Origin: an uncultured Actinomycetota bacterium
GTDB lineage: Bacteria > Actinomycetota > Actinomycetes > Propionibacteriales > Nocardioidaceae
Direction: 5' to 3'
Assembly (NCBI GenBank): GCA_963820035.1
Contig: CAWFYK010000002.1
Location: forward strand, 724,524 to 788,523
DNA length: 64,000 bases
Positions 24,980-50,225 of this stretch are shown one piece after another. Under the pieces are notes generated by a model. That model was not told the origin of the DNA. It ran no database searches and worked only from the letters and a program-made list of their open reading frames with translations. Position 1 is the stretch's first letter. Every line of letters starts with the position of its first letter. A program made the position numbers and the translations under genes.

Positions 24980-24982
24980 CGC

Positions 24983-27441: not shown

Positions 27442-29235
<1,794 letters not shown>

Positions 29236-29397: not shown

Positions 29398-29548
29398 GGG
29401 TTCTCTCCTGGCGGATGGTGACGGGGCTGCTGGGGCCAAGCCTATGATGCCGTGCCCCACGGGAACAGGTACTCGGTTTCGTCAACCACGGCCAGACGAC
29501 GAGGGTATGGCGCACCAGTCCCGCCGACACACCGGACCTTTTCCGCGG

Positions 29549-30142: not shown

Positions 30143-30241
30143 GGCATCTCCTGATGGGCATGTTAGGGAAGGCTGTCTTACCTGGACCCAACCTGGCCTG
30201 CCGAGTCGACTTCGCGCATCAGGACGAGGACCCCACTTCAG

Positions 30242-30255
30242 GGGGCTTAGGTCCC
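30242..30255. promoter_or_regulatory. Candidate DosR-type box (GGGGCTTAGGTCCC)
   Basis: Matches the mycobacterial DosR core GGGACTWWAGTCCC at 12 of 14 positions. Lies in the divergent DoxX/USP intergenic region. Confidence 0.3.
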
Positions 30256-30325
30256 AGGCCCGCTGGACCTCTGGCACTGACCGACCACGTGCACCACGCC
30301 CACGATGGACCCAGGAGGTCACACC

Positions 30326-30805
30326 ATGAACGAGAGCCGTGCGCCCATCGTCGTCGGGGTGGACGAAACCCCAGCGGCACAGACCGCCTTACGCTTCGCA
30401 CTCCACGAAGCCAGTCGACGCGGGAGTGCCCTCGATGTCGTGACCGCCTGGCGCTGGCAGCCGACGACGCAGGACCCGAGCCCGCAAGACTCGCGGGAGG
30501 TGGCCCGCGCGGAGGCCCAGGGCATTCAGGACCGAGCCGTGGCCCTGGCTCTCGAAGGAATGGACGGCTCGCCCGTGCTGTCCCGTCAGGTGGTCGAAGG
30601 TGATCCCGCCGACGTGCTGCTGCGGGTGTCACGCGCTGCCGACTATCTCGTCGTCGGCAGCGGCCGGAAGGGGCCGGTCAAGCGGATGCTGCTCGGCTCC
30701 GTCAGTGCCGACTGCGTCCGGAAGGCCATCTGCCCCGTCCTGGTGGTGCCGGCACCTCTCGCCCAGGACAGACACGGCGACCTGGTGATGAGCGCTCAGG
30801 AGTGA
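30326..30805 (+). CDS. Universal stress protein (UspA family)
   Basis: IVVGVDETPAAQTALRFA..., YLVVGSGRKGPVKRMLLGSVSADCVRKAICPVLVVP. AGGAGG RBS upstream. Confidence 0.85.
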   Translation: MNESRAPIVVGVDETPAAQTALRFALHEASRRGSALDVVTAWRWQPTTQDPSPQDSREVARAEAQGIQDRAVALALEGMDGSPVLSRQVVEGDPADVLLRVSRAADYLVVGSGRKGPVKRMLLGSVSADCVRKAICPVLVVPAPLAQDRHGDLVMSAQE

Positions 30806-30902
30806 CGTTCATCCCAGGCCAGTGGTGGATCGATCGGCGTGGTGACGGTCCGCTGCGTGGCGATCCGGATCGGGACGATCCGCGGCGGCGGACAATCGGC
30901 GG

Positions 30903-31565
30903 CTAGTGTTCCTGGCCGGTCGCCGGGTGCAGCTTGGCCGCCAGGACCGCCGCCTGGGTACGCCGCTCGAGGCCTAGCTTGGCGAGGATGCTGGATACGT
31001 AGTTCTTCACGGTCTTCTCCGCGAGGAACATCGTCTCGGCGATCTGCCGGTTGGTCATCCCCTCCGCGATGTGTCCGAGGATCTTGCGCTCCTGCTCGGT
31101 CAGCGACCGGAGCTCGTCCGGCTGGTCACTCCCTCTGCGGAGCCTCTCGAGGACGCGGTGCGTCACGGCAGGGTCCAGCAGTGACTGGCCGCTGGCCACC
31201 TGGCGAACCGCCTCGACGAGGTCGTTGCCCCTGATCTGCTTGAGGACGTAACCGGCCGCGCCGGCCATGATGGCGGCGAACAGCGCGTCGTCGTCGTCGT
31301 ACGACGTCAGGATCAGGGCATGGATCGAGGGGTCGATCGAACGGATGTCGCGGCAGACGTCGATGCCGGAGCCATCCGGGAGTCGGCCGTCGAGCACCGC
31401 GACGTGCGGGTGCAGTGCCGGGATGCGGGCGGCGGCCTCGCGCGCGAGCCCCGCCTCCCCCACCACGACGATGTCGGGCTCGGCCTCGAGCAGCTCACGG
31501 AGTCCGCGGCGGACCACCTCATGATCGTCGAGCAGGAACACGCGGATGACGTCAGGGTCTGGCAT
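30903..31565 (-). CDS. DosR/DevR-like NarL/LuxR-family response regulator
   Basis: IRVFLLDDHEVVRRGL...VAVLDGRLPDGSGIDVC (receiver domain) and LTEQERKILGHIAEGMTNRQIAETMFLAEKTVKNYVSSILAKLG (LuxR HTH). Confidence 0.85.
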   Translation of the reverse strand: MPDPDVIRVFLLDDHEVVRRGLRELLEAEPDIVVVGEAGLAREAAARIPALHPHVAVLDGRLPDGSGIDVCRDIRSIDPSIHALILTSYDDDDALFAAIMAGAAGYVLKQIRGNDLVEAVRQVASGQSLLDPAVTHRVLERLRRGSDQPDELRSLTEQERKILGHIAEGMTNRQIAETMFLAEKTVKNYVSSILAKLGLERRTQAAVLAAKLHPATGQEH

Positions 31566-31652
31566 AGCATCCTTCATACCCGCCGCTCCGCGGACGTGCC
31601 AGCGACGAACGGGACTGTTGGACGGGACCTTCGGCCCTATACCGGAGGGCGA

Positions 31653-32270
31653 CTACCGCACCGGGCCTTGACTCGCCCACCGGGCGACCACCGGCGCGAT
31701 CGCCCGGAGCGCCTTGCCACGATGGCTGATCGCGTCCTTCTCGGCGTCGGGAAGCTCGGCCGTCGTGCGGCTGCCACCGTCGGGTACGAACAGCACGTCG
31801 TAGCCGAAACCACCCGTCCCACGGAGCTCGCGGATGACCTGGCCGGGCATCTCCCCCAACGCGATCTCCTCGACCCCGCCTGGTGCACAGAAGGCGACGG
31901 CGCACCTGAACTGGGCGCCACGCCGGACATCAGGAGTGTCCTCGAGCTGCTCGAGGAGGAGGGCGTTGTTGGCGGCGTCGACCTTCGCCCGCCCGGCCCA
32001 GCGGGCCGACAGCACCCCAGGCATCCCCCGCAGGGCGTCGACGCAGAGGCCACTGTCGTCCGCCAGCGACGGCAGCCCCGTCGCCTGCAGACCCGCACGG
32101 GCCTTGATGAGGGCGTTGCCCTCGAAGCTGGGTTCGGTCTCGGCCGGCTCGTCGTACGACGGAACGTCCGCGAGCCCGAGCACCTCGATGCCCGGGACGG
32201 CGCTGTTCAGGATCCGGCGCAGCTCCTCGAGCTTCTTCGAGTTGCGCGACGCCAGGAAGACCCGGGTCAC
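31653..32270 (-). CDS. rdgB: Non-canonical purine NTP pyrophosphatase (RdgB/HAM1)
   Basis: [60 protein letters not shown] 32270 overlaps the rph stop (GTGA). Confidence 0.85.
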
Positions 32271-32986
32271 GACGCGAGCGCCTCCTGCTGCATCCGAGTC
32301 AGATCGGCGCATCCCTTGACGGCGAGCTCGAGAAGCGCGTCGAGCTCCGCGCGGCCGAACGGGTCGGCCTCCGCCGTGCCCTGCACCTCGACGTAGCGCC
32401 CGTCGCCGGTCATCACGACGTTCATGTCGGTCTCCGCCCGCACGTCCTCCTCGTATGGCAGGTCGAGACGCGGCTCGCCGTCGACCAGCCCCACGGAGAC
32501 CGCGGCCACGGAGCCACGCAACGGCTCGCCCTTGAGCGCGCCTCGGCCGCGGAGGTGCTGCACCGCGTCGGCGAGGGCGACGTAGGCACCGGTGATGGAT
32601 GCGGTGCGGGTGCCGCCGTCGGCCTGGAGGACGTCGCAGTCGAGCACGATCGTGTTCTCACCGAGCGCCCGGTAGTCGATGACGGCGCGGAGCGACCGGC
32701 CGATGAGCCGTGAGATCTCGTGGGTACGGCCCCCGATGCGGCCTTTGACGGACTCACGGTCGGACCGGGTGTGGGTCGAGCTCGGCAGCATCGCGTACTC
32801 GGCGGTCACCCAACCGAGCCCGCTGTCCTTGCGCCACCGAGGGACGCCGGTGGTGGCGCTGGCGACACACAGCACCCGGGTGCGGCCGAACTCGACGAGC
32901 ACAGAGCCGGCTGCGTGGTCGAGCCAGTTCCGGTTGAGGGTGATGGGGCGCAGTTCGTCGGCCGCACGGCCGTCAGCTCGGGTCAT
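32267..32986 (-). CDS. rph: Ribonuclease PH
   Basis: [56 protein letters not shown]. Confidence 0.9.
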
Positions 32987-33054
32987 GGCGCCGACCCTAT
33001 CGCCGGGCTCGAGACGGGCCGGACCCGATCGGCCGCGCCCATCAGGGGCCCCTG

Positions 33055-33100
33055 CCCGGTGGCCAGCCCGGTGGCCAGCCCGGTGGCCAGCCCGGTGGCC
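33055..33100. repeat. 12-bp tandem repeat CCCGGTGGCCAG, about 3.8 copies
   Basis: Units at 33055, 33067 and 33079, with a partial unit at 33091. Lies in the rph / ECF-sigma divergent intergenic region. Confidence 0.9.
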
Positions 33101-33149
33101 ATATCCGGTCGCCGCGCATCGCCGGCTCGGCGGCCCCGGACGAACTGCC

Positions 33150-33191
33150 GTGACGGGTTTGGCGTGACGGGTTTGGCGTGACGGGTTTGGC
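33150..33191. repeat. 14-bp tandem repeat GTGACGGGTTTGGC x3, immediately upstream of a -10-like GATAAT
   Basis: Units at 33150, 33164 and 33178. GATAAT at 33203-33208 sits 6 nt before the GTG start of the sigma factor (33215), suggesting a leaderless mRNA. Confidence 0.85.
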
Positions 33192-33214
33192 CGACTCGGG
33201 ACGATAATCAGAAT

Positions 33215-33751
33215 GTGAGCGAATCCGTGTCTGCCGTCCCCGATGCGGACGCGCTGCTCACGCTTTACGACGAGGCACTGCCCGTCGTCTACGGATACCT
33301 GCTCACCCGCTGTGGACAACGCGAAGAGGCGGAGGATCTGACGACGGAGACGTTCATGGCCGCGGTCGACGCCGTACGACGTCAGACCGTCCCTGACCTC
33401 ACCACCCGCTGGCTCATCGGCGTCGCTCGACACAAGCTGGCCGACCACTGGCGACGATCCGCACGCGACCAGGCTCGGCTGAGCGCCATCCGAGGCAGCC
33501 TAGGGGACCAGCTGGTCGACCCGTGGGACGTGGAGCTCGACCGGGTGGTCGCCGAGGAGACGCTCGCCGGGCTCACCCCGCTGCACCGGCTCGTCCTCAC
33601 GCTCCGCTACGTGGACGACCTGCCCGTTGCGGAGACGGCCGAGGTGATCGGCCGCAGTCTGGCAGCGACGGAGTCGCTCCTGACGAGGGCGAAGGCCGCT
33701 TTCCGCGAGGCCTACCCCTCCGAGGACACGACGGAAGGAGGGGCGACATGA
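33215..33751 (+). CDS. ECF-type sigma-70 family RNA polymerase sigma factor
   Basis: Region 2: [14 protein letters not shown]...[16 protein letters not shown]. Region 4: [41 protein letters not shown]. Confidence 0.85.
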
Positions 33752-34386
33752 GCGACCCGCTGGACATCCTGCGACGTGAACCGAGCGCCGTCTTCCCCGA
33801 CCCGGAGTTCGCCGACCGGCTGCGCGCACGGCTCACGCGCGCCCTCGACCCCCAGGAAGCCGACTATCACCTAGGAGCAGACATGAGTCCCACCCCCGCG
33901 TCCTCGACCGCCAGTCAACCTGCCGAGACGGCAAGGCCGGCCGAGAGGGACGCGGCCGAGGCGGCAACGCCGGCCGAGGCGGCAACGCCGGCCGAGGCGG
34001 CAACGCCGGCGATGGTGCCCTACCTCGCCGCCCAGGGCGCTCGAGAGGCCATCGACTGGTACACCGACGTGTTCGGCGCCACCCTCGCCGGCGACCCGAT
34101 CGTGATGCCCGACGGCCGCATCGGCCACAGCGAGCTGCACATCGGACGAGCCGTCATCTACCTCTCCGATGCACACCCCGAGATCGGTGTTGTCGCGCCG
34201 ACGGCGGGCGAGGCCTCGGTCAGCCTGATGCTGACAGTCGACGACGCGGACGCCGTACTCGCTCGTGCACAGCGAGCCGGTGGCCGAAGCGACCGAGAGC
34301 CCTACGACGCCTACGGGCGGCGCAACGCGTGGATGATCGACCCGTTCGGGCATCGCTGGGGACTGAACAGCCCGATTCGAGGCTGA
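33748..34386 (+). CDS. VOC (glyoxalase/PhnB-like) domain protein with an N-terminal extension, translationally coupled to the sigma factor
   Basis: ATGA overlap with the sigma stop. The C-terminal half (MVPYLAAQGAREAIDWYTDVFGA...HSELHIG...IYLSDA...WMIDPFGHRWGL) is PhnB/VOC-like. Confidence 0.7.
   Translation: MSDPLDILRREPSAVFPDPEFADRLRARLTRALDPQEADYHLGADMSPTPASSTASQPAETARPAERDAAEAATPAEAATPAEAATPAMVPYLAAQGAREAIDWYTDVFGATLAGDPIVMPDGRIGHSELHIGRAVIYLSDAHPEIGVVAPTAGEASVSLMLTVDDADAVLARAQRAGGRSDREPYDAYGRRNAWMIDPFGHRWGLNSPIRG
33955..34008 (+). repeat. In-frame 18-bp tandem repeat x3 (AEAATP) in the linker of the VOC protein
   Basis: GCCGAGGCGGCAACGCCG at 33955, 33973 and 33991. Confidence 0.9.
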
Positions 34387-34434
34387 CGGTACGACGGCCC
34401 CAGGCCCTGCGGATTCGTCCGGTCACGACGCAAC

Positions 34435-34660
34435 GCAACCATCCGAGAGTTTCGGCACCACCATCCGAGACTTCCGGCACCACCATCCGAGAGTTCCGGT
34501 ACGACGATCCGAGACTTCCGGCACCACCATCCGAGAGTTCCGGCACCACCATCCGAGAGTTCCGGCACGACGATCCGAGACTTCCGGCACCACCATCCGA
34601 GAGTTCCGGCACCACCATCCGAGAGTTCCGGTACGACGATCCGAGACTCCCGGCATCGGC
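34435..34660. repeat. R22-B composite copy 1, left arm: 10 tandem 22-bp units (ACCACCATCCGAGAGTTCCGGC type)
   Basis: ATCCGAG anchor at 34441 + 22n (n=0..9) with no phase slips. Two sub-types are interleaved (ACCACCATCC / ACGACGATCC). Confidence 0.95.
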
Positions 34661-34924
34661 ATGGCCGGCTGCGGGGTCCCCTCTGTCAAGCGGCGTGCGT
34701 TGGTCGGGACGTGAAGAACAGCGGTGACGGCGGCTTTCGAGCTGCTCGTGTTGGTATGGCGCCGCGCGTCTGGGCCGGTGAACACAATCACGTTCGCAAA
34801 CAAAGAAGTTCGGCGCCAGTGCGACGGAACCACCTCGAGGGCCGTTGCGTCACTGCCGTTGTTCACGTCCCGAGCAACGCACGCCGCCTGAAGGAAGCGA
34901 CCCGCAATCGGGCTGTGCCGCAGG
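34661..34924. other. R22-B 264-bp core, copy 1 (internally palindromic, non-coding)
   Basis: Identical by eye to 41403-41666. Contains 43-nt imperfect inverted arms around a 118-nt, less GC-rich centre. Confidence 0.85.
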
Positions 34925-34925
34925 G

Positions 34926-35227
34926 TCGGATCGTGGTGCCGGAACTCTCGGATCGTCGTACCAAAACTCTCGGATCGTCCTACCAAAACTCTCGGATCGT
35001 GGTGCCGGAACTCTCGGATGGTCCTGCCAAAACTCTCGGATCGTACGTACCAAAACTCTCGGATCGACGTGCCAAAACTCTCGGATCGTCCTACCAAAAC
35101 TCTCGGATCGTCGTACCAAAACTCTCGGATCGTCGTACCAAAACTCTCGGATCGTGGTGCCAGAACTCTCGGATCGTGGTGCCAGAACTCTCGGATCGTG
35201 GTGCCAGAACTCTCGGATGGTCGGGAG
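34926..35227. repeat. R22-B composite copy 1, right arm: one partial plus 13 tandem units (GGAACTCTCGGATCGTGGTGCC type)
   Basis: TCGGATCG anchor at 34948 + 22n. A single 23-bp unit shifts the phase by +1 from 35059. The array ends 18 bp before the MBL stop codon. Confidence 0.95.
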
Positions 35228-35245
35228 GTAGCAGAGCAGGCTGGG

Positions 35246-36004
35246 TCAGAGGTGGTAGGACAGGCCGGGGCGCGCCACCGACAGCGCGCCGGTGAAGTGC
35301 GGCTCGGCGTCGGCAAGCACCCGGTCGCGGTCGACCCAGGGCTGGACGTGGGTCAGCAGCAGCTGACCGGCGCCGGCGCGCGTGGCGATTTCGGCCGCCT
35401 CCCGCCCCGACATGTGCAGGTGCTCGGGCTTCTCCCCGTTCTCGAGGAACGTCGCCTCCGCGAGCAGCAGGTCGCAGCCGACGGCGATCGACTCCAACGC
35501 GTCGCACGGTCCGGTGTCACCGGAGTAGACCAACGTCCGCTCGTCGGCGGTGACGCGGATCGCGTAGGCGTCCACCGGGTGGTCGACGTTGGTGGTGTCG
35601 ATGCGGAACGGGCCGATGTCGACGGGCTTGCCGTCGTACTCGCGGAAGTCGAACTCGGCGGTCATGCCCGGCTCGGGGGCGATGTCGTAGGCACGCGCCA
35701 TCCGGCCGGCCACCCCCGGTGGACCGAAGACCGGGATCGAGCCCAGGTGGCCGCTCGGGTGGTATTTCCGCACCACATAGAAGCCGCAGAGATCGAGGCA
35801 GTGGTCGGCGTGCAGGTGAGTGAAGGCCACCGCGTCGATGGTGCGGAGGTCGACGTAGTTCTGCAGCGCGCCGAGGGCGCCGCTGCCGAGGTCGAGCAGC
35901 AACCGGAAGTCGCGACCGTGATACGCCGTCTCGACCAGGTAGCACGAGGCCGGCGAGTCCGGGCCGGGAAAGGAGCCGGAGCAGCCGACGACGGTGAGCT
36001 TCAT
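35246..36004 (-). CDS. MBL-fold metallo-hydrolase (Rv1339-like)
   Basis: [38 protein letters not shown]. The start ATG overlaps the murI stop (ATGA). Confidence 0.8.
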
Positions 36005-39626: not shown

Positions 39627-40952
39627 GTGCACACGACGGGTCTGCTGACCGACCACTACGAGCTCACGATGGTGCAAGCGGCGCTTCGATCGGGCACCGC
39701 CGAGCGGTCGAGCGTCTTCGAGGTGTTCGCCCGCCGGCTGCCGGACGGCCGTCGTTACGGTGTCGTCGCCGGGACCGGCCGGATCCTCGATGCGCTCTCG
39801 TCGTTCCGCTTCGACTCCTCCCAGCTCGGCTGGCTCGCCGACAACGGCATCGTCGACGAGCCGACGCTGGAATGGCTGTCCCGCTACCACTTCAGTGGCA
39901 CGATCTCCGGCTACGGCGAGGGCGACGCCTACTTCCCGGGCAGCCCGATCCTGGTGGTCGAGGCCAGCTTCGCCGAGGGAGTGCTGCTCGAGACGCTGAT
40001 CCTGTCGATCCTCAACCACGACTCGGCCGTGGCATCAGCGGCATCTCGGATGAGCCGGGCTGCTGAGGGGCGGCCGTGCATCGAGATGGGCTCCCGCCGT
40101 ACCCACGAGCGGGGAGCGGTCGCGGCCGCCCGAGCCGCCTACATCACGGGCTTCTCGGCGACCTCGAACCTGCAGGCCGGTCTCGACTACGGCGTCCCGA
40201 CGGCCGGCACCGCCGCCCACTCGTTCACGCTGCTGCACGACAGTGAGCGCGACGCCTTCACGACCCAGGTCGAGACGCTCGGGCGGGGTACGACGCTGCT
40301 CGTCGACACCTACGACGTCGGGGAGGCGGTGAAGACGGCCATCGACGTCGCGGGACCCGAGCTGGGCGCGGTGCGGATCGACTCAGGCGACCTGAGCCTG
40401 CTCGCCAAGCAGGTACGCCGCCAGCTCGACGAGCTCGGTGCGACGGCGACCCGCATCATCGTGACGAGCGACTTGGACGAGTTCTCGATCGCCGGGCTCT
40501 CCGGCGCCCCCGTGGACGGCTACGGCGTGGGGACCTCCCTCGTCACCGGCTCCGGCTCCCCCACGTGCGGGTTCGTCTACAAGCTCGTCGCGCGGGCGCT
40601 GTCCGGCGAGCCAGGCGGCACGCTGCTCCCGGTCGCGAAGAAGAGCAGCCACAAGATGAGCGTGGGCGGCCGCAAATGGGCGGTCCGGCGATGTGACGCT
40701 CGCGGCAACGCCGTCGCCGAGGTGCTCGGGGTGGGCGAGCTGCCCGCCCTCGACTCGAACGAACGGCCGCTGCTCGTCCCGCTCGTGAGCGGCGGCGAGG
40801 TCGTCGGTCGGGAGACGCTCGACGACGCCCGGGCACGCCATGAACGCGCGATGGCGGAGCTGCCGGTCGAGGCCGGCAAGCTGTCGCACGGCGAGCCGGC
40901 GATCGACACCGAGTTCGTCATCCCCGACCCAGCCGCCGCCGCCCGCTCGTAG
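39627..40952 (+). CDS. pncB: Nicotinate phosphoribosyltransferase
   Basis: LLTDHYELTMVQAAL, FEVFARRLP, EMGSRRTH, GTAAHSF, VRIDSGDL. Confidence 0.9.
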   Translation: MHTTGLLTDHYELTMVQAALRSGTAERSSVFEVFARRLPDGRRYGVVAGTGRILDALSSFRFDSSQLGWLADNGIVDEPTLEWLSRYHFSGTISGYGEGDAYFPGSPILVVEASFAEGVLLETLILSILNHDSAVASAASRMSRAAEGRPCIEMGSRRTHERGAVAAARAAYITGFSATSNLQAGLDYGVPTAGTAAHSFTLLHDSERDAFTTQVETLGRGTTLLVDTYDVGEAVKTAIDVAGPELGAVRIDSGDLSLLAKQVRRQLDELGATATRIIVTSDLDEFSIAGLSGAPVDGYGVGTSLVTGSGSPTCGFVYKLVARALSGEPGGTLLPVAKKSSHKMSVGGRKWAVRRCDARGNAVAEVLGVGELPALDSNERPLLVPLVSGGEVVGRETLDDARARHERAMAELPVEAGKLSHGEPAIDTEFVIPDPAAAARS

Positions 40953-40956
40953 TACC

Positions 40957-41402
40957 CCGACGATCCGAGACTTTCGGCACCACCATCCGAGAGTTTTGGT
41001 ACGACCATCCGAGAGTTTCGGCACCACCATCCGAGAGTTTCGGTACGACGATCCGAGAGTTCCGGCACCACCATCCGAGAGTTCTGGCACCACCATCCGA
41101 GAGTTCTGGTACGACGATCCGAGAGTTCCGGCACCACGATCCGAGAGTTCCGGCACCACCATCCGAGAGTTCCGGCACCACCATCCGAGAGTTCCGGCAC
41201 CACCATCCGAGAGTTCCGGCACCACCATCCGAGAGTTCCGGCACCACCATCCGAGAGTTCCGGCACCACCATCCGAGAGTTCCGGCACCACCATCCGAGA
41301 GTTCCGGCACCACCATCCGAGAGTTCCGGCACCACCATCCGAGAGTTCTGGCACCACCATCCGAGAGTTCTGGCACGACGATCCGAGACTTCCGGCACCA
41401 CC
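40957..41402. repeat. R22-B composite copy 2, left arm: 20 tandem 22-bp units
   Basis: ATCCGAG anchor at 40963 + 22n (n=0..19) with no phase slips. Eight consecutive units (41161-41336) are identical. The array starts 4 bp after the pncB stop. Confidence 0.95.
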
Positions 41403-41666
41403 ATGGCCGGCTGCGGGGTCCCCTCTGTCAAGCGGCGTGCGTTGGTCGGGACGTGAAGAACAGCGGTGACGGCGGCTTTCGAGCTGCTCGTGTTGGTATG
41501 GCGCCGCGCGTCTGGGCCGGTGAACACAATCACGTTCGCAAACAAAGAAGTTCGGCGCCAGTGCGACGGAACCACCTCGAGGGCCGTTGCGTCACTGCCG
41601 TTGTTCACGTCCCGAGCAACGCACGCCGCCTGAAGGAAGCGACCCGCAATCGGGCTGTGCCGCAGG
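41403..41666. other. R22-B 264-bp core, copy 2
   Basis: Base-for-base equal (by eye) to 34661-34924 at a constant offset of 6,742. Inverted arms at 41429-41471 and 41590-41632 are 38/43 complementary. Confidence 0.85.
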
Positions 41667-41828
41667 GTCGGATCGTGGTGCCGGAACTCTCGGATCGTGG
41701 TGCCGGAACTCTCGGATCGTGGTGCCGGAACTCTCGGATCGTACCAAAACTCTCGGATCGCCTACCGAACTCTGGATCGCTACAAAACTCTCGGATCGTA
41801 TCGTCGTACCAAAACTCTCGGATCGTCG
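41667..41828. repeat. R22-B composite copy 2, right arm: about 7 units, progressively degenerate
   Basis: TCGGATCG at 41668, 41690, 41712 and 41734 is in phase. After that come irregular units at 41753, 41771 (TCTGGATCG), 41791 and 41818. Confidence 0.85.
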
Positions 41829-41829
41829 A

Positions 41830-41850
41830 GGGAGGGGAGGGAGGGGAGGG
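41830..41850 (+). other. G-quadruplex-type motif GGGAGGGGAGGGAGGGGAGGG
   Basis: Five G3-4 runs separated by single A residues, between the right arm and the DUF1697 stop codon (41851-41853). Confidence 0.6.
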
Positions 41851-42402
41851 TCAGGTGAGGGTGGGGGACGGCGCGGCCCACTTGTCGGCGAGGGCGGTGA
41901 CGACCTTCCAGTCGCGGCTCGTCGCGGCGAGCCCGGCTAGCTTCTCGATCCGCGCGTTGTTGGCCTTGGCCTCGTGGGAGGGCTTGGCGAGCCACATGTG
42001 GAGGTCGCGGCCGACCAGCTGCAGCCGCTCGCCGTCGACGTCCCAGCCGTTCAGTCGCTTCGTCGCCTCCGCTGCAGGCTCAGACCGCAGGAAGCTCAGA
42101 TAGTGCCGGGCGTCGTCGCCCAGCGGGTTGTCCGGGGCGGACTCGACGATGGCCCGGAGCTGCTTCGGCGTCCGCACCAGGGCCGGCACGGCGAACCCGA
42201 GCTGCTCCTCCAGCGCCGTCTCCATCATCGTCTCCACCTTCGCGGTGGACCTGGCCCGCGAGACGACGCACACGTTGCCGCTCTGGATGTGCGTCTCCAC
42301 CTCCGTGAAGCCGGCGTCGACGAGATGACCACGGAGCGCCTCCATCTTCACGAAACGGCCGCCCACGTTGACCGCTCGGAGGAACGCGATGTACGTCGCC
42401 AT
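41851..42402 (-). CDS. DUF1697-domain protein
   Basis: MATYIAFLRAVNVGGRFVKMEALR...VETHIQSGNV. The part of ORF 41851..42600 upstream of this Met is not needed. Confidence 0.7.
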   Translation of the reverse strand: MATYIAFLRAVNVGGRFVKMEALRGHLVDAGFTEVETHIQSGNVCVVSRARSTAKVETMMETALEEQLGFAVPALVRTPKQLRAIVESAPDNPLGDDARHYLSFLRSEPAAEATKRLNGWDVDGERLQLVGRDLHMWLAKPSHEAKANNARIEKLAGLAATSRDWKVVTALADKWAAPSPTLT

Positions 42403-42589
42403 GGCGGCCAAGCCTACCCAGACACGGCCCGGCCCGCCGTCGGCGTCAGCCTCCCCCGAGCATCGCCTTGAGGAAGCCGACGACGTCTCACGGATGCCTC
42501 CTGGGTGCCGTGAGTGACCGTCTCTGATCTTCTGCCCGACCCCACGCCTGGTCAAGACATCGTTCCGAGACCCTTCTCTGATCGCGCGG

Positions 42590-43438
42590 TCAGGTGACAT
42601 CGCGTCTCCGCGCTACCAGGATCGTCAGCGCCCAGCAGCCCACGACATAGCAGACCAACGTGATCAGAGAGCGGCCCTCCGTGACGCTGTCGTTGACGCC
42701 CGGTGGCGGGTCGAGCACCCGGGCCGGCATCACCGACGTCACGAGGGAGCCGGCGTTCACCCCAGGGAGTACGTCGCGAATGGGACTGAGCGCCGTCAGC
42801 ACCGAGGACGCCATGCCCGAGACCAGGTTCTCGATGCCGAGCACCCAGACCACGCCCAGCCCGATCGGCAGCGCCACTCCTCGCAGGATGACACCCATGA
42901 CGGCGCCCAAAGACGCCCAGACGACCAGCACGAGCCAGCCGGCGCCGATCCCGGAGACCAGGTCGCCGAGCGCGGGGAAGTTCAGCGGCTTCGTCTCGCC
43001 GAGAGCGATGGTGGTCGAGGTGACCGCACCGAACGTGAGCTGCGCCAGCACGGCCACCAGAGTTGCCGCCGCAATCGCCAGCAGCTGCCCGACCATCACG
43101 GCTGACCGCGCCGGACGCTGGGTGAGCTGGGTCTTGACCGTCCCCCAGCCGTATTCGCTCCCCGAGATCAGCGCGCCCAGCACGAGCGCCAGCGCTCCGG
43201 CGAACACGGGGAACCCGCTGAGCGTGTTGCCGACCAGCTGGGCCGGCAGCGTGGACGCCAACAGATCGGCCGGGGTGGCGCCCTCATCGAGCTTGTTTCC
43301 CCCGGTGTAGGAGAGGAACGGGATCAGGTAGCTGAAGATCTGGTTGAGCACGATGGCAGCGACCAGCAGCACCCAGGCGGCCGGCCGGCGTACCAGCTTG
43401 AACAGCTCTGCCCTGCTCACAGCGACGATGTCAGACAT
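42590..43438 (-). CDS. ABC-2 type transporter permease
   Basis: MSDIVAVSRAELFKLVRRPAAWVLL..., six TM segments by eye. The start overlaps the ATPase stop. Confidence 0.7.
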   Translation of the reverse strand: MSDIVAVSRAELFKLVRRPAAWVLLVAAIVLNQIFSYLIPFLSYTGGNKLDEGATPADLLASTLPAQLVGNTLSGFPVFAGALALVLGALISGSEYGWGTVKTQLTQRPARSAVMVGQLLAIAAATLVAVLAQLTFGAVTSTTIALGETKPLNFPALGDLVSGIGAGWLVLVVWASLGAVMGVILRGVALPIGLGVVWVLGIENLVSGMASSVLTALSPIRDVLPGVNAGSLVTSVMPARVLDPPPGVNDSVTEGRSLITLVCYVVGCWALTILVARRRDVT

Positions 43439-44432
43439 GGTGCACCTCGCGATCTGTCCCGATGTCCGTCGACGTCGCCGTCGACGTGGCCTCGTCATGG
43501 TGTCCGGTCATCTCCATGAAGACGTCCTCGAGCTCGCGCTCCTCGCGCCTCAGCTCGGTGACGGCGATTCCGGCGGTGACGAGACAGCGCGCCAGCTCGG
43601 CCGTATGTCGGCTGTCCATCTCGACCCGGAGGGTGCCGTCCACGACCCGCACGGACCGCACCTCGGGCCTGGCCTCGACCAGCTCGCGAGCCCGATCGGA
43701 CGGCGCCGCGGACACGACGAGCTCGCCGTGTCCGCGCAACTCGTCGACGGAGCTCTCCGCGATGATCCGGCCGCGATCGATGACGGCGACGCGGTCGCAG
43801 ATCTGCTGCACCTCGCCCATCAGGTGGCTCGAGAGCAGCACGGTCCGACCCTCCGCTCCCAGGCGGCGGATCAGTCCCCTCATGTCGCGCATGCCGGCCG
43901 GGTCCAGCCCGTTGGTCGGCTCGTCAAGCACGACGACCTGCGGGTCCTTCAGGAGTGCCGCGGCGACTCCGAGCCGCTGCTTCATCCCGAGGGAGTACGT
44001 CGCATAGCGGTCATCGCCTCGCTCGGTCAGCGACACCAGGCTCAACGCCTCCTCTATCGCAGCGGACGGGAGGCCGCCGTAGCGGGCCAGCACCCGCAGG
44101 TTGTCCCGGCCGGACAGGAAGGGGTAGAACGCGGGCCCCTCAATGAGGGCACCGACTCTCGCCAGCGCCTCCGATGTCCCCGGGTTCTGACCGAGCACGG
44201 AGACGGTGCCGCCTGTTGGCCTGATCAGCCCGAGCAGCATCCGCAGTGTCGTGGTCTTCCCTGCGCCGTTCGGGCCGAGGAAGCCGTAGATCTCGCCGCT
44301 TCGCACGGTGAGGCTGATCGAGTCCACTGCGCGGATCTCACCGCGACGGCGGGCTCCTTGATTGCCTCGACGGCGTTTCCGTGAAGCGCCATAGGTCTTC
44401 GACAGGTCGTGCGCGACAACGGTGTCGGTCAT
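43431..44432 (-). CDS. ABC transporter ATP-binding protein
   Basis: Walker A GPNGAGKTT, signature YSLGMKQRL, Walker B VVVLDEPTNGLD. Confidence 0.9.
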   Translation of the reverse strand: MTDTVVAHDLSKTYGASRKRRRGNQGARRRGEIRAVDSISLTVRSGEIYGFLGPNGAGKTTTLRMLLGLIRPTGGTVSVLGQNPGTSEALARVGALIEGPAFYPFLSGRDNLRVLARYGGLPSAAIEEALSLVSLTERGDDRYATYSLGMKQRLGVAAALLKDPQVVVLDEPTNGLDPAGMRDMRGLIRRLGAEGRTVLLSSHLMGEVQQICDRVAVIDRGRIIAESSVDELRGHGELVVSAAPSDRARELVEARPEVRSVRVVDGTLRVEMDSRHTAELARCLVTAGIAVTELRREERELEDVFMEMTGHHDEATSTATSTDIGTDREVHHV

Positions 44433-44686
44433 CGCTGCTCCTTCAGCACGGCAAGACGTTCGCGGTACTCCTGCTCGTCGATCTCACCGGCGGCATAGCG
44501 CTCGGCCAGCCGTGCCTGGCCAGCCTGGCTGCCGGCCATCCGGAAGCGCCGACGACCGCCGACCACAAAGAACCAGATGACGGCACCGAGGAAGAGCAAC
44601 CACAGCAGCGGGAACACCGGCCACCAGGCCGGTCCGTTCCACTGGTCGGAGTGGGCGAGCAGGGTCGGGTTCGCAAGAAGCAGCAT
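44429..44686 (-). CDS. SHOCT-domain small membrane protein
   Basis: One TM segment plus C-terminal LAERYAAGEIDEQEYRERLAVLK (SHOCT). The stop overlaps the ABC ATPase start. Confidence 0.7.
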   Translation of the reverse strand: MLLLANPTLLAHSDQWNGPAWWPVFPLLWLLFLGAVIWFFVVGGRRRFRMAGSQAGQARLAERYAAGEIDEQEYRERLAVLKEQR

Positions 44687-44865
44687 CGAAGACTCCAGAA
44701 GTGAGGGAAAGGAACGCCTCCAAGCCTGTCCAGCAAGGCCCCTGCCGTCGTCGCCCCTCGGACGCGACCAAGGCTGCCGCGGTGGGCGCAGGTGCGCGTC
44801 GGCCGACTACGCCGATGGGAGTAGTCGGCAGTGCCAGCCCGGCCGGACGACGTACGACGGGGTGG

Positions 44866-45531
44866 TCAGCCCGACCAGCCGGGCCGGACAAGCCCGCTCT
44901 CGTAGGCCATCACGACGAGCTGGGCCCGGTCGCGCGCCTGCAGCTTCGTCATCGCGCGGCTCACGTGGGTCTTGGCGGTCGCCGGGCTGAGCACCAGACG
45001 CATCGCGATCTCGTGGTTGCTCAAGCCCTCCCCGACCAACGCTACGACCTCCCGCTCGCGGTCGGTGAGCGGGTCGAGGAGCTCGGGCGCGACGCTTCGC
45101 CGGCTGCGGTTGGCGAACTCCGAGATCAGCCGTCGGGTGACCCCGGGCGACAGCAGAGCATCGCCGGCTGCGACCGCGCGTACCCCCGCGAGCATCTCAG
45201 CGGGCTCGGTGTCCTTCACCAAGAAGCCGCTGGCACCGATTCGGACCGCTTCGAACACGTACTCGTCGAGGTCGAACGTGGTCAGGATGACGACGCGGGT
45301 GTCGCCGAGGGCCGGGTCCGCGACGATCTGCCTGGTCGCCTCCAGGCCATCCATGCCAGGCATCCGGATGTCCATCAGGACGACGTCCGGGCGGGTCGCG
45401 CTCACGACGTCGACCGCCTCCTGGCCGGTCGACGCCTCCCCCACGACGTCGATGTCGTGCTCGGCGTCGATCAGGGCGCGCAGCCCGGCCCGCAGCAGTG
45501 CTTGGTCGTCGGCCAGCACGACCCGGATCAC
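44866..45531 (-). CDS. NarL/LuxR-family response regulator
   Basis: IRVVLADDQALLRAGL, DVVLMDIRMPGMDG, LTDREREVVALVGEGLSNHEIAMRLVLSPATAKTHVSRAM. Confidence 0.9.
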   Translation of the reverse strand: MIRVVLADDQALLRAGLRALIDAEHDIDVVGEASTGQEAVDVVSATRPDVVLMDIRMPGMDGLEATRQIVADPALGDTRVVILTTFDLDEYVFEAVRIGASGFLVKDTEPAEMLAGVRAVAAGDALLSPGVTRRLISEFANRSRRSVAPELLDPLTDREREVVALVGEGLSNHEIAMRLVLSPATAKTHVSRAMTKLQARDRAQLVVMAYESGLVRPGWSG

Positions 45532-46814
45532 GGCGGATCCTCGCGAGAGAGCGGCAGCGTCGCGCGGATCAGCACGCCCCCAGTCGTGGCACGGCCGACG
45601 GTCAAGGTGCCGCCCAAGGCAGCGGCGCGCTCGTGCATCCCGCGAAGCCCGCTTCCCGTCGGCTCCGGCCAGCCGGGTTCGGCGCCGCCGGCCACGACGC
45701 CTGCGCCGTCTCCGTCGTCGTCGATCTCGACCACGAGTACGTCGGGGCGGTAGTCGAGCCGGACCTCCGCCCGGGCGGCTCCCGCATGTCGGATCACGTT
45801 GGTGACCGCCTCCTGGATGATCCGAAACGCAGCCAGCTCGACGGCCGTCGGCAGCGGTTGAACGTCCCCGTCGACCCTGGTGCGAAGATCCAGGCCGGCG
45901 AGCGCGCTGCGCTCGACGAGGTCGGGCAGCGAACCGAGCATCGCGGTGGGGCTGCGGGGCGCCCCTTCAGCCTCGTCGCGCAGAACCCCCACGAGGCTGC
46001 GGAGCTCCACGAGTGCCTCTTTGCTCGCCTCCTTGATGACGCCGAGGGCGGTCTCGACCTGGTCCGGACGGCGTTCCACCAGATGCAGCGCCACGCCTGC
46101 CTGCACGTTGATGAGCGACATGTGGTGGGCGACGACGTCGTGCAGCTCGCGAGCGATGCGCAGTCGCTCCTCGTTTGCCTGCCGACGCCCCGTCTCCCGG
46201 CGTGCCGCGCTGGCCGCGACCCACCGCTCGCGTCTGATCCGAACCGCCTCCGCAGCGGTGAGGATCACCAGTCCCCACGCCGCGACGCCGAGCGCCTCCC
46301 CCCAGGTGACCTGCTCGTCCAGCAGCCAAGAACGAGCGACGAGATGGCCGGCGTACAGCACGACGAAGCCCGACCAAGCGGCGAGCCGGTGGCCCGACAC
46401 GAGCGCAGCGAACAAGGCGATGGCCGCGCTCACGACGACCGGACCGTAGGGATAGCCGCGCAGCAGGTAGGCCAGGGTCGCCGCGAGGACGACCCACATG
46501 ACGGCGACCGGCTGGCGTCGTACCCACAGCAGCGCAACAGGACCAACCAGGGCGAGCAGCCAGGCGAGCGCGTCCAGGCTCCTTGCGCCGGTCTGGTGCC
46601 GGGAGGCGCCTATCGTCCCGACGACGACGAAGACCGCGAGCACGAGCGGACCCACGAACCCGATCCGCGGCGGCCGTCCCGGCCGGTCGGACCGGGCTCG
46701 CCAGTCCGCCCGCCACCGCTCGTCGGGCCGACCGGGCCCGGCAGCCCGCCAGGCCACGTCCGATCGCCCCGCTCCGTCGGGCTGGTCGGGGGATCGGCCC
46801 GCGGTCGTGGTCAC
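45528..46814 (-). CDS. Sensor histidine kinase (HisKA_3 / DesK-LiaS type)
   Basis: N-terminal TM segments, H-box ERLRIARELHDVVAHHMS, HATPase motifs QEAVTNVIRHAG...DDGDG...GSGLRGMHERA. Confidence 0.85.
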   Translation of the reverse strand: MTTTAGRSPDQPDGAGRSDVAWRAAGPGRPDERWRADWRARSDRPGRPPRIGFVGPLVLAVFVVVGTIGASRHQTGARSLDALAWLLALVGPVALLWVRRQPVAVMWVVLAATLAYLLRGYPYGPVVVSAAIALFAALVSGHRLAAWSGFVVLYAGHLVARSWLLDEQVTWGEALGVAAWGLVILTAAEAVRIRRERWVAASAARRETGRRQANEERLRIARELHDVVAHHMSLINVQAGVALHLVERRPDQVETALGVIKEASKEALVELRSLVGVLRDEAEGAPRSPTAMLGSLPDLVERSALAGLDLRTRVDGDVQPLPTAVELAAFRIIQEAVTNVIRHAGAARAEVRLDYRPDVLVVEIDDDGDGAGVVAGGAEPGWPEPTGSGLRGMHERAAALGGTLTVGRATTGGVLIRATLPLSREDPP

Positions 46815-46893
46815 CCTTGCACGCTAAGCGAGAACGTGGCGAGTGTCATCGCCTCCCCGGCCGAGTGCCTGCTACTCCCCCGGGAGTACCGCC

Positions 46894-47047
46894 CCGTCGA
46901 GCCGTCACCTTCTTACCGCCGAACCGTCACCTTCTTACCGCCGAACCGTCACCTTCTTACCGCCGAACCGTCACCTTCTTACCGCCGAACCGTCACCTTC
47001 TTACCGCCGAACCGTCACCTTCTTACCGCCGAACCGTCAAGAAGTTC
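46894..47047. repeat. R22-A left arm, locus 2: 7 units (1 degenerate, 5 perfect CCGCCGAACCGTCACCTTCTTA, 1 terminal variant)
   Basis: Perfect units start at 46916 + 22n (n=0..4). The terminal variant CCGCCGAACCGTCAAGAAGTTC (47026-47047) is the same as at locus 1. Confidence 0.95.
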
Positions 47048-47090
47048 CCAGTACGACGCCCCGCGCGGGAGCGTCATATCGTTGGCCGAC

Positions 47091-47288
47091 GGAACAAACC
47101 TGACGGCTCGACCGGAAGAACATGACGGCTCGACCGGAACAACCTGACGGCTCGACCGCAACAACCTGACGGCTCGACCGGAACAACCTGACGGCTCGAC
47201 CGGAAGAACATGACGGCTCGACCGGAAGAACCTGACGGCTCGACCGGAACAACCTGACGGCTCGACCGGAAGAACATGACGGCTCGCC
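47091..47288. repeat. R22-A right arm, locus 2: 9 units GGAAGAACATGACGGCTCGACC / GGAACAACCTGACGGCTCGACC
   Basis: TGACGG anchor at 47101 + 22n (n=0..8). The array ends 5 bp before the hppD stop codon (47294-47296). Confidence 0.95.
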
Positions 47289-47293
47289 GGAGG

Positions 47294-49192
<1,899 letters not shown>

Positions 49193-49205
49193 CTAGAGTC
49201 CTCGG

Positions 49206-50225
49206 ATGCATGTTCTCGTCTCCGGCGGTGCCGGCTACATCGGGTCGCACACCGTCATCCAGCTGATCGCTGCCGGCCACGACGTCCTCATCGTCGACAA
49301 CTTCGCCAACTCCAAGCCCACCGTCGTCAACCGGCTCGAGGCGATCACCGGCCGACCAGTGCAGCTGATGTCGTTCGACCTCTGCGATGCAGACAAGACC
49401 GAGCACCTCTTCGCCAACGAGCCCATCGACGCGGTCGTGCACTTCGCCGGCTTCAAGGCGGTCGGCGAGAGTGTCGAGAAGCCTTTGGAGTACTACGAGA
49501 ACAACCTCGGCACGACGTTCTCCCTGGTGCGGGCCATGCAGCGCCACGGCGTTGACAAGCTGGTGTTCTCGTCGTCGGCGACCGTCTACGGACCCGACGC
49601 TCCGGTGCCGATGGACGAGAGCCTGCCGACCTCGGCGACCAACCCCTACGGCTGGACGAAGGTGATGATCGAGCAGGTGCTGCGGGACGTCGCGGTCGCC
49701 CGGCCCGACTGGCGGATCGGGCTGCTGCGCTACTTCAACCCGGTCGGCGCTCACTCGTCCGGGACGATCGGCGAGGACCCGTCCGACATCCCCAACAACC
49801 TGATGCCCTTCATCGCCCAGGTCGCCGTGGGCCGGCGGGAGAAGCTGCTCGTGTTCGGCGACGACTACGACACGGTCGACGGCACCGGGGTGCGTGACTA
49901 CATCCACGTCGAGGATCTGGCGGCCGGCCACGTCGCGGCCCTGACGAAGCTGACCCGGACCGACCAGTCGGTCAGCACCTGGAACCTCGGCAGCGGCCAC
50001 GGCACCAGCGTCCTCGAGCTGCTGCATGCGTTCGAGCGGGCGGTCGGACGCGAGCTGCCCTACGAGGTGGTCGGCCGTCGCGCGGGCGACATCGCCGCGT
50101 CGTACGCCGATCCGTCACTCGCCGAGGCGGAGCTCGGTTGGACTGCGACCAGGTCCGTCGACGACATGTGCGCGGACGTGTGGCGGTGGCAGTCGCAGAA
50201 CCCGATGGGCTACCCGGACGCCTGA
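49206..50225 (+). CDS. galE: UDP-glucose 4-epimerase
   Basis: VLVSGGAGYIGSH, SSSATVYG, YGWTK, YFNPVGAH, DYIHVEDLA. Confidence 0.9.
   Translation: MHVLVSGGAGYIGSHTVIQLIAAGHDVLIVDNFANSKPTVVNRLEAITGRPVQLMSFDLCDADKTEHLFANEPIDAVVHFAGFKAVGESVEKPLEYYENNLGTTFSLVRAMQRHGVDKLVFSSSATVYGPDAPVPMDESLPTSATNPYGWTKVMIEQVLRDVAVARPDWRIGLLRYFNPVGAHSSGTIGEDPSDIPNNLMPFIAQVAVGRREKLLVFGDDYDTVDGTGVRDYIHVEDLAAGHVAALTKLTRTDQSVSTWNLGSGHGTSVLELLHAFERAVGRELPYEVVGRRAGDIAASYADPSLAEAELGWTATRSVDDMCADVWRWQSQNPMGYPDA

Follow-up and report, generated by a model that had tools for sequence, protein, structure and literature searches.

The 264-bp segment at positions 41403-41666 of the window (the whole 64-kb stretch of DNA that was analysed) is an imperfect palindrome that forms the core of a larger intergenic element, in which two arrays of a 22-bp repeat face each other. 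The reading favoured here, which is given roughly an even chance of being correct, is that the core is the middle module of a new REP/BIME-like family of composite, non-coding, hairpin-forming intergenic repeats. The host lineage is a Nocardioidaceae-like soil actinobacterium of the order Propionibacteriales. The elements share one architecture and their cores are related to one another; they sit at gene ends, their arrays vary between strains, the pairing of the core arms is conserved, and they carry neither coding potential nor an Rfam or promoter signal. By analogy with known repeats, this position suggests that the hairpins may function at gene ends.

The palindrome extends further than had been described. 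In the preliminary description the segment 41429-41471 was complementary to 41590-41632 at 38 of 43 positions, a figure that a recount reproduced. An inverted-repeat search lengthened these arms to 56 nt at 84% (41416-41471 and 41590-41645, with 118 nt between them), and when a 2-nt indel is allowed the pairing reaches ~41483 and ~41578, giving arms of ~68 nt (~41416-41483 and ~41578-41645) around a centre (~41484-41577) without significant structure. The arms reach a local score of 29, whereas 500 shuffled sequences average 7.4 and never exceed 13. Folding of both strands, which had been proposed as a check, places the core far beyond shuffled sequence, with z about -10: the + strand RNA folds at -163.1 kcal/mol (z = -9.7), the - strand at -150.7 kcal/mol (z = -8.5), and DNA parameters give z = -7.0, with 0 of 200 shuffles as good in each case. 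The centre had fairly been called unpaired, because the 118 nt between the arms fold on their own no better than shuffles (z = -0.29), with the exception of the outer ~12 nt, which prolong the arms. It had also been said to include the least GC-rich stretch of the locus; the stretch in question is the GC minimum of the core (44%, against 65.5% for the core overall), but it is not that of the whole locus, the right array having 45% at 41780-41819.

A second copy of the core, at 34661-34924, is 100% identical to the first, and the two belong to a family of imperfect palindromes of ~180-310 bp with conserved inverted arms of ~60-70 nt and a variable centre, none of which is assigned to a strand within the window. 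The family comprises these two copies (CB), a divergent copy (C1) at 3953-4245, a half core (C2) at 22197-22382, and three copies outside the window in the same species, namely L086:10363-10672, a fragment in L092, and the divergent P0004. C1 is without flanking arrays and contains a nested central palindrome at 4053-4123. It matches the other cores by BLAST with E values of 6e-5 to 4e-8 and is also found by nhmmer; its inverted repeats have a common centre near 4089, and its fold has a z of -6.9. C2 matches C1 in turn (BLAST 81% over 59 nt, E 2e-8; nhmmer E 7.5e-4). Most copies are placed at, or close to, the point about which inverted 22-bp arrays are symmetrical, and copies occur with two arrays, one array or none; the L086 core lies beside an apex-like palindrome and not exactly at its apex. 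The centre is the least conserved part of the family, varying widely in length and sequence and being absent or replaced in paralogues. Conserved boxes, with CAGTGACGCGGCGGCT as the arm box, persist in copies that are otherwise 25-40% different. A search with an nhmmer core profile against 80 loci of other actinobacteria (1.5 Mb) found no copy outside this species.

The repeat that flanks the cores, R22-B, is a 22-bp unit made up of ATCCGAGAGTT and 11 variable bases. Units run head-to-tail within each arm and orientation flips once per element, giving n units, the core, and m inverted units. The arrays, which occupy the space between gene 3' ends, reach 20 units and lengths of up to 440 bp. 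Inspection of the unit sequences shows that a single unit is complementary to itself over at most 3 bp (CCG...CGG), which are missing in some variants, and that a hairpin requires two units in opposite orientation. Many units contain CGTCG (GATCGTCGT...), which falls inside the paired part of inverted arrays, and many others carry CGTGG; the GTAG tag is absent from the units. No similarity is detectable between the core and the array units. A second family, R22-A, is unrelated in sequence to R22-B and agrees with it in its 22-bp period (two helical turns) and in the layout of its inverted arrays. The kinship of the two families that had earlier been hinted at was not supported, since units of one match units of the other at 10-12 of 22 positions against a shuffle mean of 10.6, and the resemblance noted between the core arm and the R22-A unit proved weak, being beaten by 14 of 500 shuffles for the B core and absent from the three divergent core copies.

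At the locus of the core at 41403-41666 (B2), the left array (40963-41404, + strand) has 20 head-to-tail sense units (TRF period 22, 20.1 copies, 93% matches) and begins 10 nt past the stop codon of a nicotinate phosphoribosyltransferase (NAPRT) gene (39627-40952). The right array (41667-41828, - strand) consists of ~6-7 inverted, partly degenerate units and stops 22 nt short of the stop codon of a convergent DUF1697 gene (41851-42600, - strand). The identical core (B1) is flanked by a left array of 10 units (34438-34660, + strand), downstream of a glyoxalase-family gene (33523-34386), and by a right array of 13 inverted units (34925-35223, - strand), with 22 nt between the end of the latter and the stop codon, at 35246, of a convergent gene for a metallo-beta-lactamase-fold protein. 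C2 lies directly 3' of the stop codon of a GNAT acetyltransferase gene (21708-22196) and has a right-arm array only, a solo array of 8.7 inverted units (22383-22574, - strand) whose last unit overlaps the stop codon of a Cpn10-like gene (22573-22914, - strand). A minimal coreless element at 18192-18250, again assigned to neither strand, combines one sense and two antisense units in a hairpin with an 11-bp stem, and sits between the convergent stop codons of M18 aminopeptidase and MarR genes. All six repeat loci in the window, a density of 6 per 64 kb, are found at gene 3' ends, five of them between convergent genes and one (A2) between co-directional genes. In every element the units start at most ~55 nt from stop codons, often 2-10 nt away, or overlap them. 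The flanking genes are ordinary, mutually unrelated chromosomal housekeeping genes; the window also encodes a 214-aa protein at 1442-2086 and a 543-aa protein at 8050-9681.

Variation within the species was followed in ~150 kb of DNA, comprising the 64-kb window and ~90 kb of a sister strain. In this second strain, which is 98-99.9% identical, the loci are kept and the unit numbers differ: the B2 left array has 15 units in place of 20, the B1 right array 11 in place of 13, a third array shows 6 versus 5, and the minimal element at 18192-18250 is 53 bp longer, corresponding to two extra antisense units. Beyond the species, coreless mini versions with 1-4 units per arm, as in the window, were found in another Nocardioidaceae genome, a metagenome-assembled genome (MAG; L053) in which the 11-mer reads ATCCGYGRGTT, and, exactly between convergent stop codons, in the metagenome contigs L081 and L082. 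Across these different genomes the 11-mer ATCCGAGAGTT is kept, and the rest of the unit, another 11 bp, is not. When metagenome contigs were scanned with a looser unit pattern, four were picked out, two of them with genuine short relatives and two with unrelated plasmid iterons; the L083/L084 iterons contain the 11-mer, but their surroundings are unrelated and low in GC, and the long ORF downstream of them is read as Rep-like. The exact two-unit pattern gave 0 matches in 185,579 representative genomes, a set from which both the repeat family and the species are absent. Plasmid iterons or a replication origin were rejected as an identity for the window's own repeats in view of their chromosomal housekeeping context and of a blastn search with the core and its junction units that found no match in plasmid and phage collections, and a CRISPR array was rejected on the grounds that the 22-bp units are contiguous, without spacers.

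The ORFs that cross the two full elements (34711-35295 and 41453-42103) exist and, as had been stated, are not protein-like: they are mechanical, and their homologues are just spurious ORFs over the same repeats, four of which have entered public protein collections. The idea of a conserved small ORF within the core was likewise rejected, the 17-codon ORF at the left edge not being kept in other copies and the indels not being multiples of three. Rfam covariance models returned nothing over 40900-41900 at E <= 5 and, at the gathering threshold across the whole window, no match for these repeat loci; at E <= 5, C1 gave chance miRNA-like matches (E 0.4-2.8) and nothing relevant. No sigma-70-like site was found at the B2 element. 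A terminator scan of 40700-42100 identified one weak site, where 0.7 are expected from shuffles, and because no T-run follows the arms or arrays, the hairpins are not canonical intrinsic terminators.

These results bear on several other explanations. The one to which the preliminary description had leaned, a structured small-RNA gene or a promoter flanked by insulating hairpins, is now highly improbable: the strong predicted fold on both strands, the ~12 kcal/mol by which the + strand is the more stable, and the lowest GC of the core falling in its centre would suit it, but there is neither an Rfam match nor a sigma-70-like site nor a terminator-like T-run, the left-edge ORF is not conserved, and the centre, where a promoter or the start of a transcript would be expected, is the part that paralogues conserve least or replace. 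Arm mismatches show no strand bias either, with G:T versus A:C counts of 10/10, 7/6 and 10/10; an RNA strand assigned from wobble bias was rejected, the G:U excess on RNAalifold pairs being a selection artefact and the unbiased count symmetric. The third suggestion made for the core was the conserved body of a non-autonomous mobile element, and this option, taken as a dispersed element that may be non-autonomous, comes closer to the evidence than the other two, in that the family is multi-copy with conserved inverted arms, a variable centre and varied array context; it falls short in that neither target duplications nor a matching IS were found. Taken as an explanation, a MITE- or foldback-like element, comprising the core or the whole array-core-array, with a transposase encoded elsewhere and a preference for gene-end hairpins, is nevertheless unlikely, as is recognition by such a transposase of the conserved inverted arms or the 22-bp units. 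Two identical cores that share their junction units, 6.7 kb apart and between unrelated genes, argue for mobility, as do the dispersal of divergent copies in different array contexts, the MITE-like combination of arms and centre, and the off-apex L086 core, which looks like an insertion. Yet gene conversion through homologous arrays can also yield identical copies, the junctions of core with array and of array with flank showed no direct target-site duplications (the flanks there are palindromic because they are parts of units), and the second strain shows no presence/absence polymorphism at the loci covered, namely the two full elements, C2 together with its array, and the minimal element at 18192-18250. 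The sole transposon in the window, an IS1182-family element whose terminal repeat occurs once there, ends at 3952, and C1 begins exactly at its right terminal inverted repeat; copies of this element adjoin C1 directly, a core-like fragment, and an R22-A array at 55 bp. A decayed IS end, raised earlier as a possible identity of the core, finds no backing here, nor does derivation from the adjacent IS1182-family end, to which the cores show no similarity (p = 0.4-0.9). Since IS ends and cores are unrelated, the core is not part of this element but its neighbour and probably its target. IS1272, of the same IS family, is reported to target inverted-repeat structures, some of them downstream of genes, without target duplication (PMC5678879), and the position of the IS1182-family element beside palindromes in several of its copies gives indirect support to the hairpin-repeat reading.

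In another view, which is rather improbable, the core has no function and is what neutral decay has left of an old perfect palindrome, for example of an inverted duplication of ancient date or of an inner array portion that has degenerated, and array recombination carries it along and homogenises it. Neutral decay could explain much of the pattern, because complementarity of the arms within copies (64-75% Watson-Crick) is about equal to identity between copies and because the L086 copy folds at shuffle level (z = -0.35); the unstructured and highly variable centre points the same way. Better conservation of the core than of its surroundings between strains was rejected as divergence is patchy, and the identity of the cores between strains is uninformative because, over the region compared, 51-69% of randomly placed 264-bp windows match perfectly as well. 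Against decay stand the retention of pairing in all three divergent full copies, where 94% of cells pair and 38-49% do so with partners slid (the structure being derived from these same sequences), the seven pairs changed on both sides (from just three independent sequences, which are also the source of the structure), the survival of the conserved boxes in divergent copies, and the dissimilarity of core and units. Of 46 pairs in the main helix, 21 are invariant in these three copies, and such retention of arm blocks as sequence and not just as pairs would suit a platform for phased protein binding at the DNA level, with the units and inverted arm boxes as binding sites and the palindrome reflecting cruciform extrusion or the binding of dimers. 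Such a platform could be a recombination site, or a nucleoid, topology or gyrase-type site where supercoils from convergent transcription accumulate; this too is improbable, both as a kind of site and in its details. The lack of strand bias in the cores is expected of a duplex-level feature, and the 11-mer conserved between genomes and the common 22-bp period and architecture of two unrelated unit families are in keeping with it, but no candidate binding protein was found, the neighbours are unrelated housekeeping genes, unit numbers vary too freely between strains for a precisely dosed site, and a common 11-mer could reflect descent of a young repeat family. More speculative, and quite improbable, is that the array-core-array is a bacterial foldback counterpart or a dedicated chromosomal device, in which a lineage-specific protein would recognise phased 22-bp sites and the arm boxes would be the site of action of that protein, a recombinase or a topoisomerase, with mobilisation, or management of topology and transcription collisions between convergent genes, as the outcome; two unrelated unit families with one architecture would then imply two specificities.

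Under the preferred reading of a REP/BIME-like repeat, the building block would be the 22-bp unit placed immediately after stop codons, where a sense and an inverted unit would together form a hairpin, the minimal form having 1-4 units per arm and no core. Slippage or unequal exchange may have expanded the units in this species into long, strain-variable arrays facing each other, and the core would be a separate small palindrome family mostly lodged at or near the array symmetry centres. Transcripts reading out of either flanking gene could fold the arms, and the arrays as well if transcribed through, into a long hairpin that may limit read-through and attack by 3'-exonucleases in REP/BIME fashion. 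At the DNA level, the non-palindromic centre might act as a spacer that lets very long inverted arrays persist, and the identity of the two cores would most simply be due to recent copying, or to gene conversion via the homologous arrays on both sides. The hairpin reading is weakened in that an RNA-level role would more likely leave a wobble bias, yet the cores show none, and conservation of the 11-mer across taxa is more in keeping with recognition by a protein than with a role in structure alone.

Canonical intrinsic terminators are scarce in high-GC Actinobacteria, and hairpin units that start at stop codons could help to mark or insulate gene ends in these genomes. To our knowledge, interspersed palindromic repeats are well described in Proteobacteria and hardly so in high-GC Actinobacteria. 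Arrays that are hypervariable between strains 98-99.9% identical might be used to type strains, and they probably give rise to assembly errors and to spurious ORF calls. The repeat loci may also be preferred landing sites of an apparently active IS1182-family element, which would link repeat structure to genome plasticity.

The closest comparison is with REP, BIME and REPIN sequences, including the Stenotrophomonas SMAG repeats and the GTAG/CGTC-tagged REP superfamilies. These are short and non-coding, lie downstream of ORFs, mainly between convergent or co-directional genes, fold with opposite partners into larger hairpins, form head-to-tail clusters that change copy number between strains, and have proposed roles in termination, mRNA stabilisation and supercoiling (PMC3733652, PMC2613905, PMC2817692). 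An unpaired GTAG or CGTC tag at the terminus is characteristic of REPs, and REP and REPIN sequences of more than 100 copies per genome together with an associated RAYT (Y1) transposase. The present repeats share with REP/BIME sequences their extragenic location 3' of ORFs, their inverted-partner hairpins and their strain-variable head-to-tail copies. In contrast, the REP unit is itself a stem-loop (20-40 bp, with a stem of 8-9 bp or longer), which the 22-bp unit is not, and BIMEs alternate in orientation with regular spacing and conserved linkers, whereas orientation here switches a single time per element. Arrays of up to 20 units with a palindromic core of ~260-310 bp in the middle are a further difference, and Actinobacteria go unmentioned in the REP survey consulted (PMC3733652), whereas the present host is an actinobacterium. 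The cores also resemble the ERIC/IRU, Correia and RUP palindromes and MITEs (PMC3184786) in being a few hundred bp long, intergenic and multi-copy, with inverted ends and a variable interior. In contrast to ERIC sequences and MITEs, neither a target-site duplication nor a parent IS with matching ends was found for them, and they are usually nested in arrays of an unrelated tandem repeat. Drosophila FB foldback transposons have long inverted ends of tandem short units around a unique middle. The array-core-array layout is similar, although here the host is bacterial, the position at gene 3' ends is fixed, and neither evidence of transposition nor an associated transposase is seen. Like the targets of IS1272 (PMC5678879), finally, the palindromes described here adjoin copies of an IS1182-family element.

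The 264-bp core at 41403-41666 is classed here as the middle part of a composite palindromic repeat that is intergenic and non-coding. The window around it is a chromosome segment of 68% GC from a member of the Propionibacteriales that has no near relative in the genome collection: the NAPRT-like protein (nicotinate phosphoribosyltransferase) that it encodes shares no more than 72-74% identity with proteins of Nocardioidaceae/Propionibacteriales MAGs and of Kribbella. Tandem Repeats Finder delineates two families of 22-bp repeats. The unit of family B (R22-B) is ATCCGAGAGTT plus 11 variable bases, with arrays at 22383-22574, 34438-35223 (element B1) and 40963-41828 (element B2), and a short element recovered by pattern search at 18192-18250. 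The unit of family A (R22-A) is CCGCCGAACCGTCACCTTCTTA plus its imperfect inverse, at 10726-11045 and 46894-47291 (elements A1 and A2). The full elements consist of a head-to-tail run of units opposite an inverted run, separated by a middle segment of 264 bp (B1, B2) or ~60 bp (A1, A2); outside elements built of 22-bp units, long inverted repeats are nearly absent from the window.

All elements in the window adjoin the 3′ ends of genes, the gap between stop codon and unit being at most ~55 nt, often 2-10 nt, or replaced by an overlap. Convergent gene pairs surround five loci and a same-strand pair surrounds A2. The flanking genes are ordinary, encoding a glyoxalase, a metallo-beta-lactamase fold, NAPRT, DUF1697, an HPPD-like dioxygenase, a histidine kinase, an M18 aminopeptidase, MarR, a GNAT acetyltransferase and Cpn10. 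Features scoring above Rfam gathering thresholds in the window are a c-di-AMP (ydaO-type) riboswitch (62565-62739, − strand), a fluoride riboswitch (55094-55160, − strand) and a tRNA-Leu (23779-23862, + strand).

The palindromic arms reported in the preliminary description are borne out: the two 43-mers singled out there pair at 38 of 43 positions, and a repeat finder extends the B2 core arms to 56 nt (84% complementary, 118 nt apart), with pairing continuing to ~41483/41578 across a 2-nt indel. The arms score 29, whereas 500 shuffles average 7.4 and none exceeds 13. The core is predicted to be far more stable than its dinucleotide shuffles: RNA folding gives −163.1 kcal/mol for the + strand (z = −9.7) and −150.7 kcal/mol for the − strand (z = −8.5), and DNA parameters give z = −7.0. 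The centre was fairly described as unpaired, its 118 nt folding alone at shuffle level (z = −0.29). Its low GC content, also remarked on, holds within the core, where a 36-nt stretch of 44% GC is the minimum (65.5% overall), but the right array includes a stretch just as low. The B1 core (34661-34924) is 100% identical to that of B2.

Further copies are more divergent. At a third locus, in a sister genome (L086), B-type arrays flank a 310-bp middle segment that is a divergent core homologue (E = 4e-13). Another divergent copy, together with a B-type array, underlies a spurious 266-aa ORF (P0004) on a 352,873-bp NCBI/ENA contig, and through this protein a core copy without any arrays (C1) was located in the window at 3953-4245. 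A half core (C2, 22197-22382) follows a stop codon and precedes a solo array, and L092, also of the sister genome, carries a core fragment. No copies turned up in a profile search that covered 1.5 Mb of 80 other actinobacterial genomes. The alignment reveals conserved arms, with CAGTGAYGCGGCGGCT and CTCGAGRGCCGYTGCGTCACTGC among the recurring blocks; variation is greatest in the centre, which is much shorter in L086 and much longer in C1, there forming its own nested palindrome.

A mechanical ORF running through B1, used to query a protein collection, matched only four proteins, none with a Pfam domain. Three of the four derive from contigs of a single ENA metagenome assembly, one of which is 98-99.9% identical to the window across 39 kb and carries the same loci. 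Between the window and this second, sister strain, unit numbers differ in the B2 left array (20 versus 15), the B1 right array (13 versus 11), the B2 right array (6 versus 5) and the antisense part of the short element (2 versus 4, making it 53 bp longer in the second strain), with unit variants shuffled as well, so that the arrays are hypervariable. Core sequences match in full or at all but 1-2 positions, an agreement that carries no weight because divergence between the strains is patchy and, of 264-bp windows drawn at random, 51-69% are identical too. Divergence amounts to ~16-24 substitutions/kb at 37-41 kb, where the NAPRT gene lies, and once more past 51 kb, and to 0-5 substitutions/kb across most other parts (24000-36000, 42000-50000), a pattern that suggests recombination tracts. 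Three short tandem repeats just upstream of B1, at 33054-33101 (12 bp x4), 33149-33191 (14 bp x3) and 33922-34010 (18 bp x5), are also present in the sister strain, the last with 4.1 copies versus 5.1 in the window. A G-quadruplex-type run, GGGAGGGGAGGGAGGGGAGGG (41829-41851), separates the B2 right array from the DUF1697 stop codon, with G-runs whose lengths differ in the sister strain; shorter G-runs occupy the equivalent position beside the short element (18243-18252).

Whether the arm pairing is maintained bears on the nature of the core. RNAalifold derives 63 pairs from the full copies, three in number, that diverge from one another. Standard pairs fill 94% of cells, whereas sliding the partners by 1-3 columns leaves 38-49%, and two-sided changes occur at 7 pairs versus 0-4 in the slid controls. 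This comparison, of three independent sequences from which the structure was itself derived, favours a palindrome that is maintained. The core may instead be an old palindrome in neutral decay: arm complementarity within a copy (64-75% Watson-Crick) is near the identity between copies, as expected if an ancestral perfect palindrome decays neutrally, and the whole L086 copy folds at shuffle level (z = −0.35). Since an RNA hairpin tolerates G:U and not A:C, mismatches were also examined for strand asymmetry. An excess of G:T on pairs chosen by RNAalifold proved to be a selection artefact; on symmetric pairs from DNA alignment, G:T and A:C mismatches number 10/10, 7/6 and 10/10, and the cores therefore point to no functional RNA strand. 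A small-RNA gene or promoter, as also proposed in the preliminary description, is the least supported reading: the core has no Rfam match even at E <= 5, no sigma-70-like promoter or hairpin-plus-T-run terminator was found at it, and no small ORF is conserved across its copies. No relative occurs in plasmid or phage collections, and protein homologues are limited to spurious ORFs over repeats. The earlier interpretation is thus supported in part, the dispersed-element option fitting a multi-copy family whose members have two arrays, one or none.

Nor is the core a decayed IS end. An IS1182-family element (2146-3952; transposase ORFs 2180-2911 and 2782-3696) ends in the right terminal repeat TTGTTCAGCAGTCTCCTAG at 3934-3952, and C1 begins at the very next base; this end is similar to no core (p = 0.4-0.9), and the core is therefore not its remnant. 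In the window copy the first 25 nt, left terminal repeat included, are missing and three single bases are deleted; otherwise its identity to the intact copies of the sister genome (1,835 bp; 2858-4692 in L092-L094) is 99.6%. Among the three intact copies retrieved, that in L092 lies 84 nt from a core-like fragment (2697-2774; nhmmer, E = 0.003), that in L093 has an A-type array of five units 55 bp away (4748-4869), and the remaining one has no recognisable repeat close by. IS1272, of the same family, is reported to insert, without duplicating its target, at inverted-repeat structures, some of them downstream of genes (PMC5678879). Palindromic repeats as preferred landing sites are the simplest reading, offered as a lead from four IS copies.

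R22-A elements share the 22-bp period and inverted-array layout of R22-B. Their arm mismatches (1 versus 17-18) are strongly biased towards G:U on the − strand, which folds to −194 versus −129 and −248 versus −174 kcal/mol on the + strand, a bias that boils down to ~3 independent unit differences copied repeatedly within arrays. Both genes beside A2 lie on the − strand, the one that folds better. The suggested kinship of the two families did not hold up: no relationship between A and B units was detected, and the resemblance of a core arm to the R22-A unit is marginal in the B core, where 14 of 500 shuffles score as high, and absent from other core copies.

An exact two-unit pattern has no match in 185,579 representative genomes. 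A looser pattern recovers coreless versions in two metagenome contigs (2 sense + 4 antisense units, or 1 + 2), precisely between convergent stop codons. A Nocardioidaceae MAG (L053) holds a two-plus-two version with conserved halves ATCCGTGAGTT and ATCCGCGGGTT, another (L007) a short A-like array, and the short element at 18192-18250 is itself a hairpin with an 11-bp stem between two stop codons. The pair of units that forms a hairpin is therefore the older, more widespread form, and the long arrays and core are its elaborations, so far found in this species alone. The 11-mer ATCCGAGAGTT also occurs in plasmid-type iterons at ~22-bp spacing in metagenome contigs (L083, 240-330; L084, 1452-1484). 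The surroundings are lower in GC, and the long ORF downstream of the iterons was read as Rep-like; the context being unrelated, this match was judged a coincidence.

The most likely function is a hairpin that limits read-through and 3′ decay: transcripts of flanking genes would fold into long hairpins restricting both, and the unstructured core centre could serve as a spacer making very long inverted arrays tolerable in DNA. The element may also be a MITE-like or foldback-like mobile element, as its identical copies between unrelated genes suggest, although neither target duplications nor a parent element were found. A phased protein-binding platform may account for an 11-mer conserved across taxa, for two unrelated unit families with the same 22-bp period and for cores without strand bias.

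Among known systems, the hairpin-forming elements resemble REP/BIME/REPIN and SMAG repeats, as described in PMC3733652, PMC2613905 and PMC2817692, in their position, in the hairpins formed by oppositely oriented partners and in head-to-tail clusters that vary by strain. They fall outside these families because the 22-bp unit forms no stem-loop by itself, each element has a single orientation switch, and a large palindromic core is present. The family appears to be an undescribed variant of a bacterial repeat type already known.
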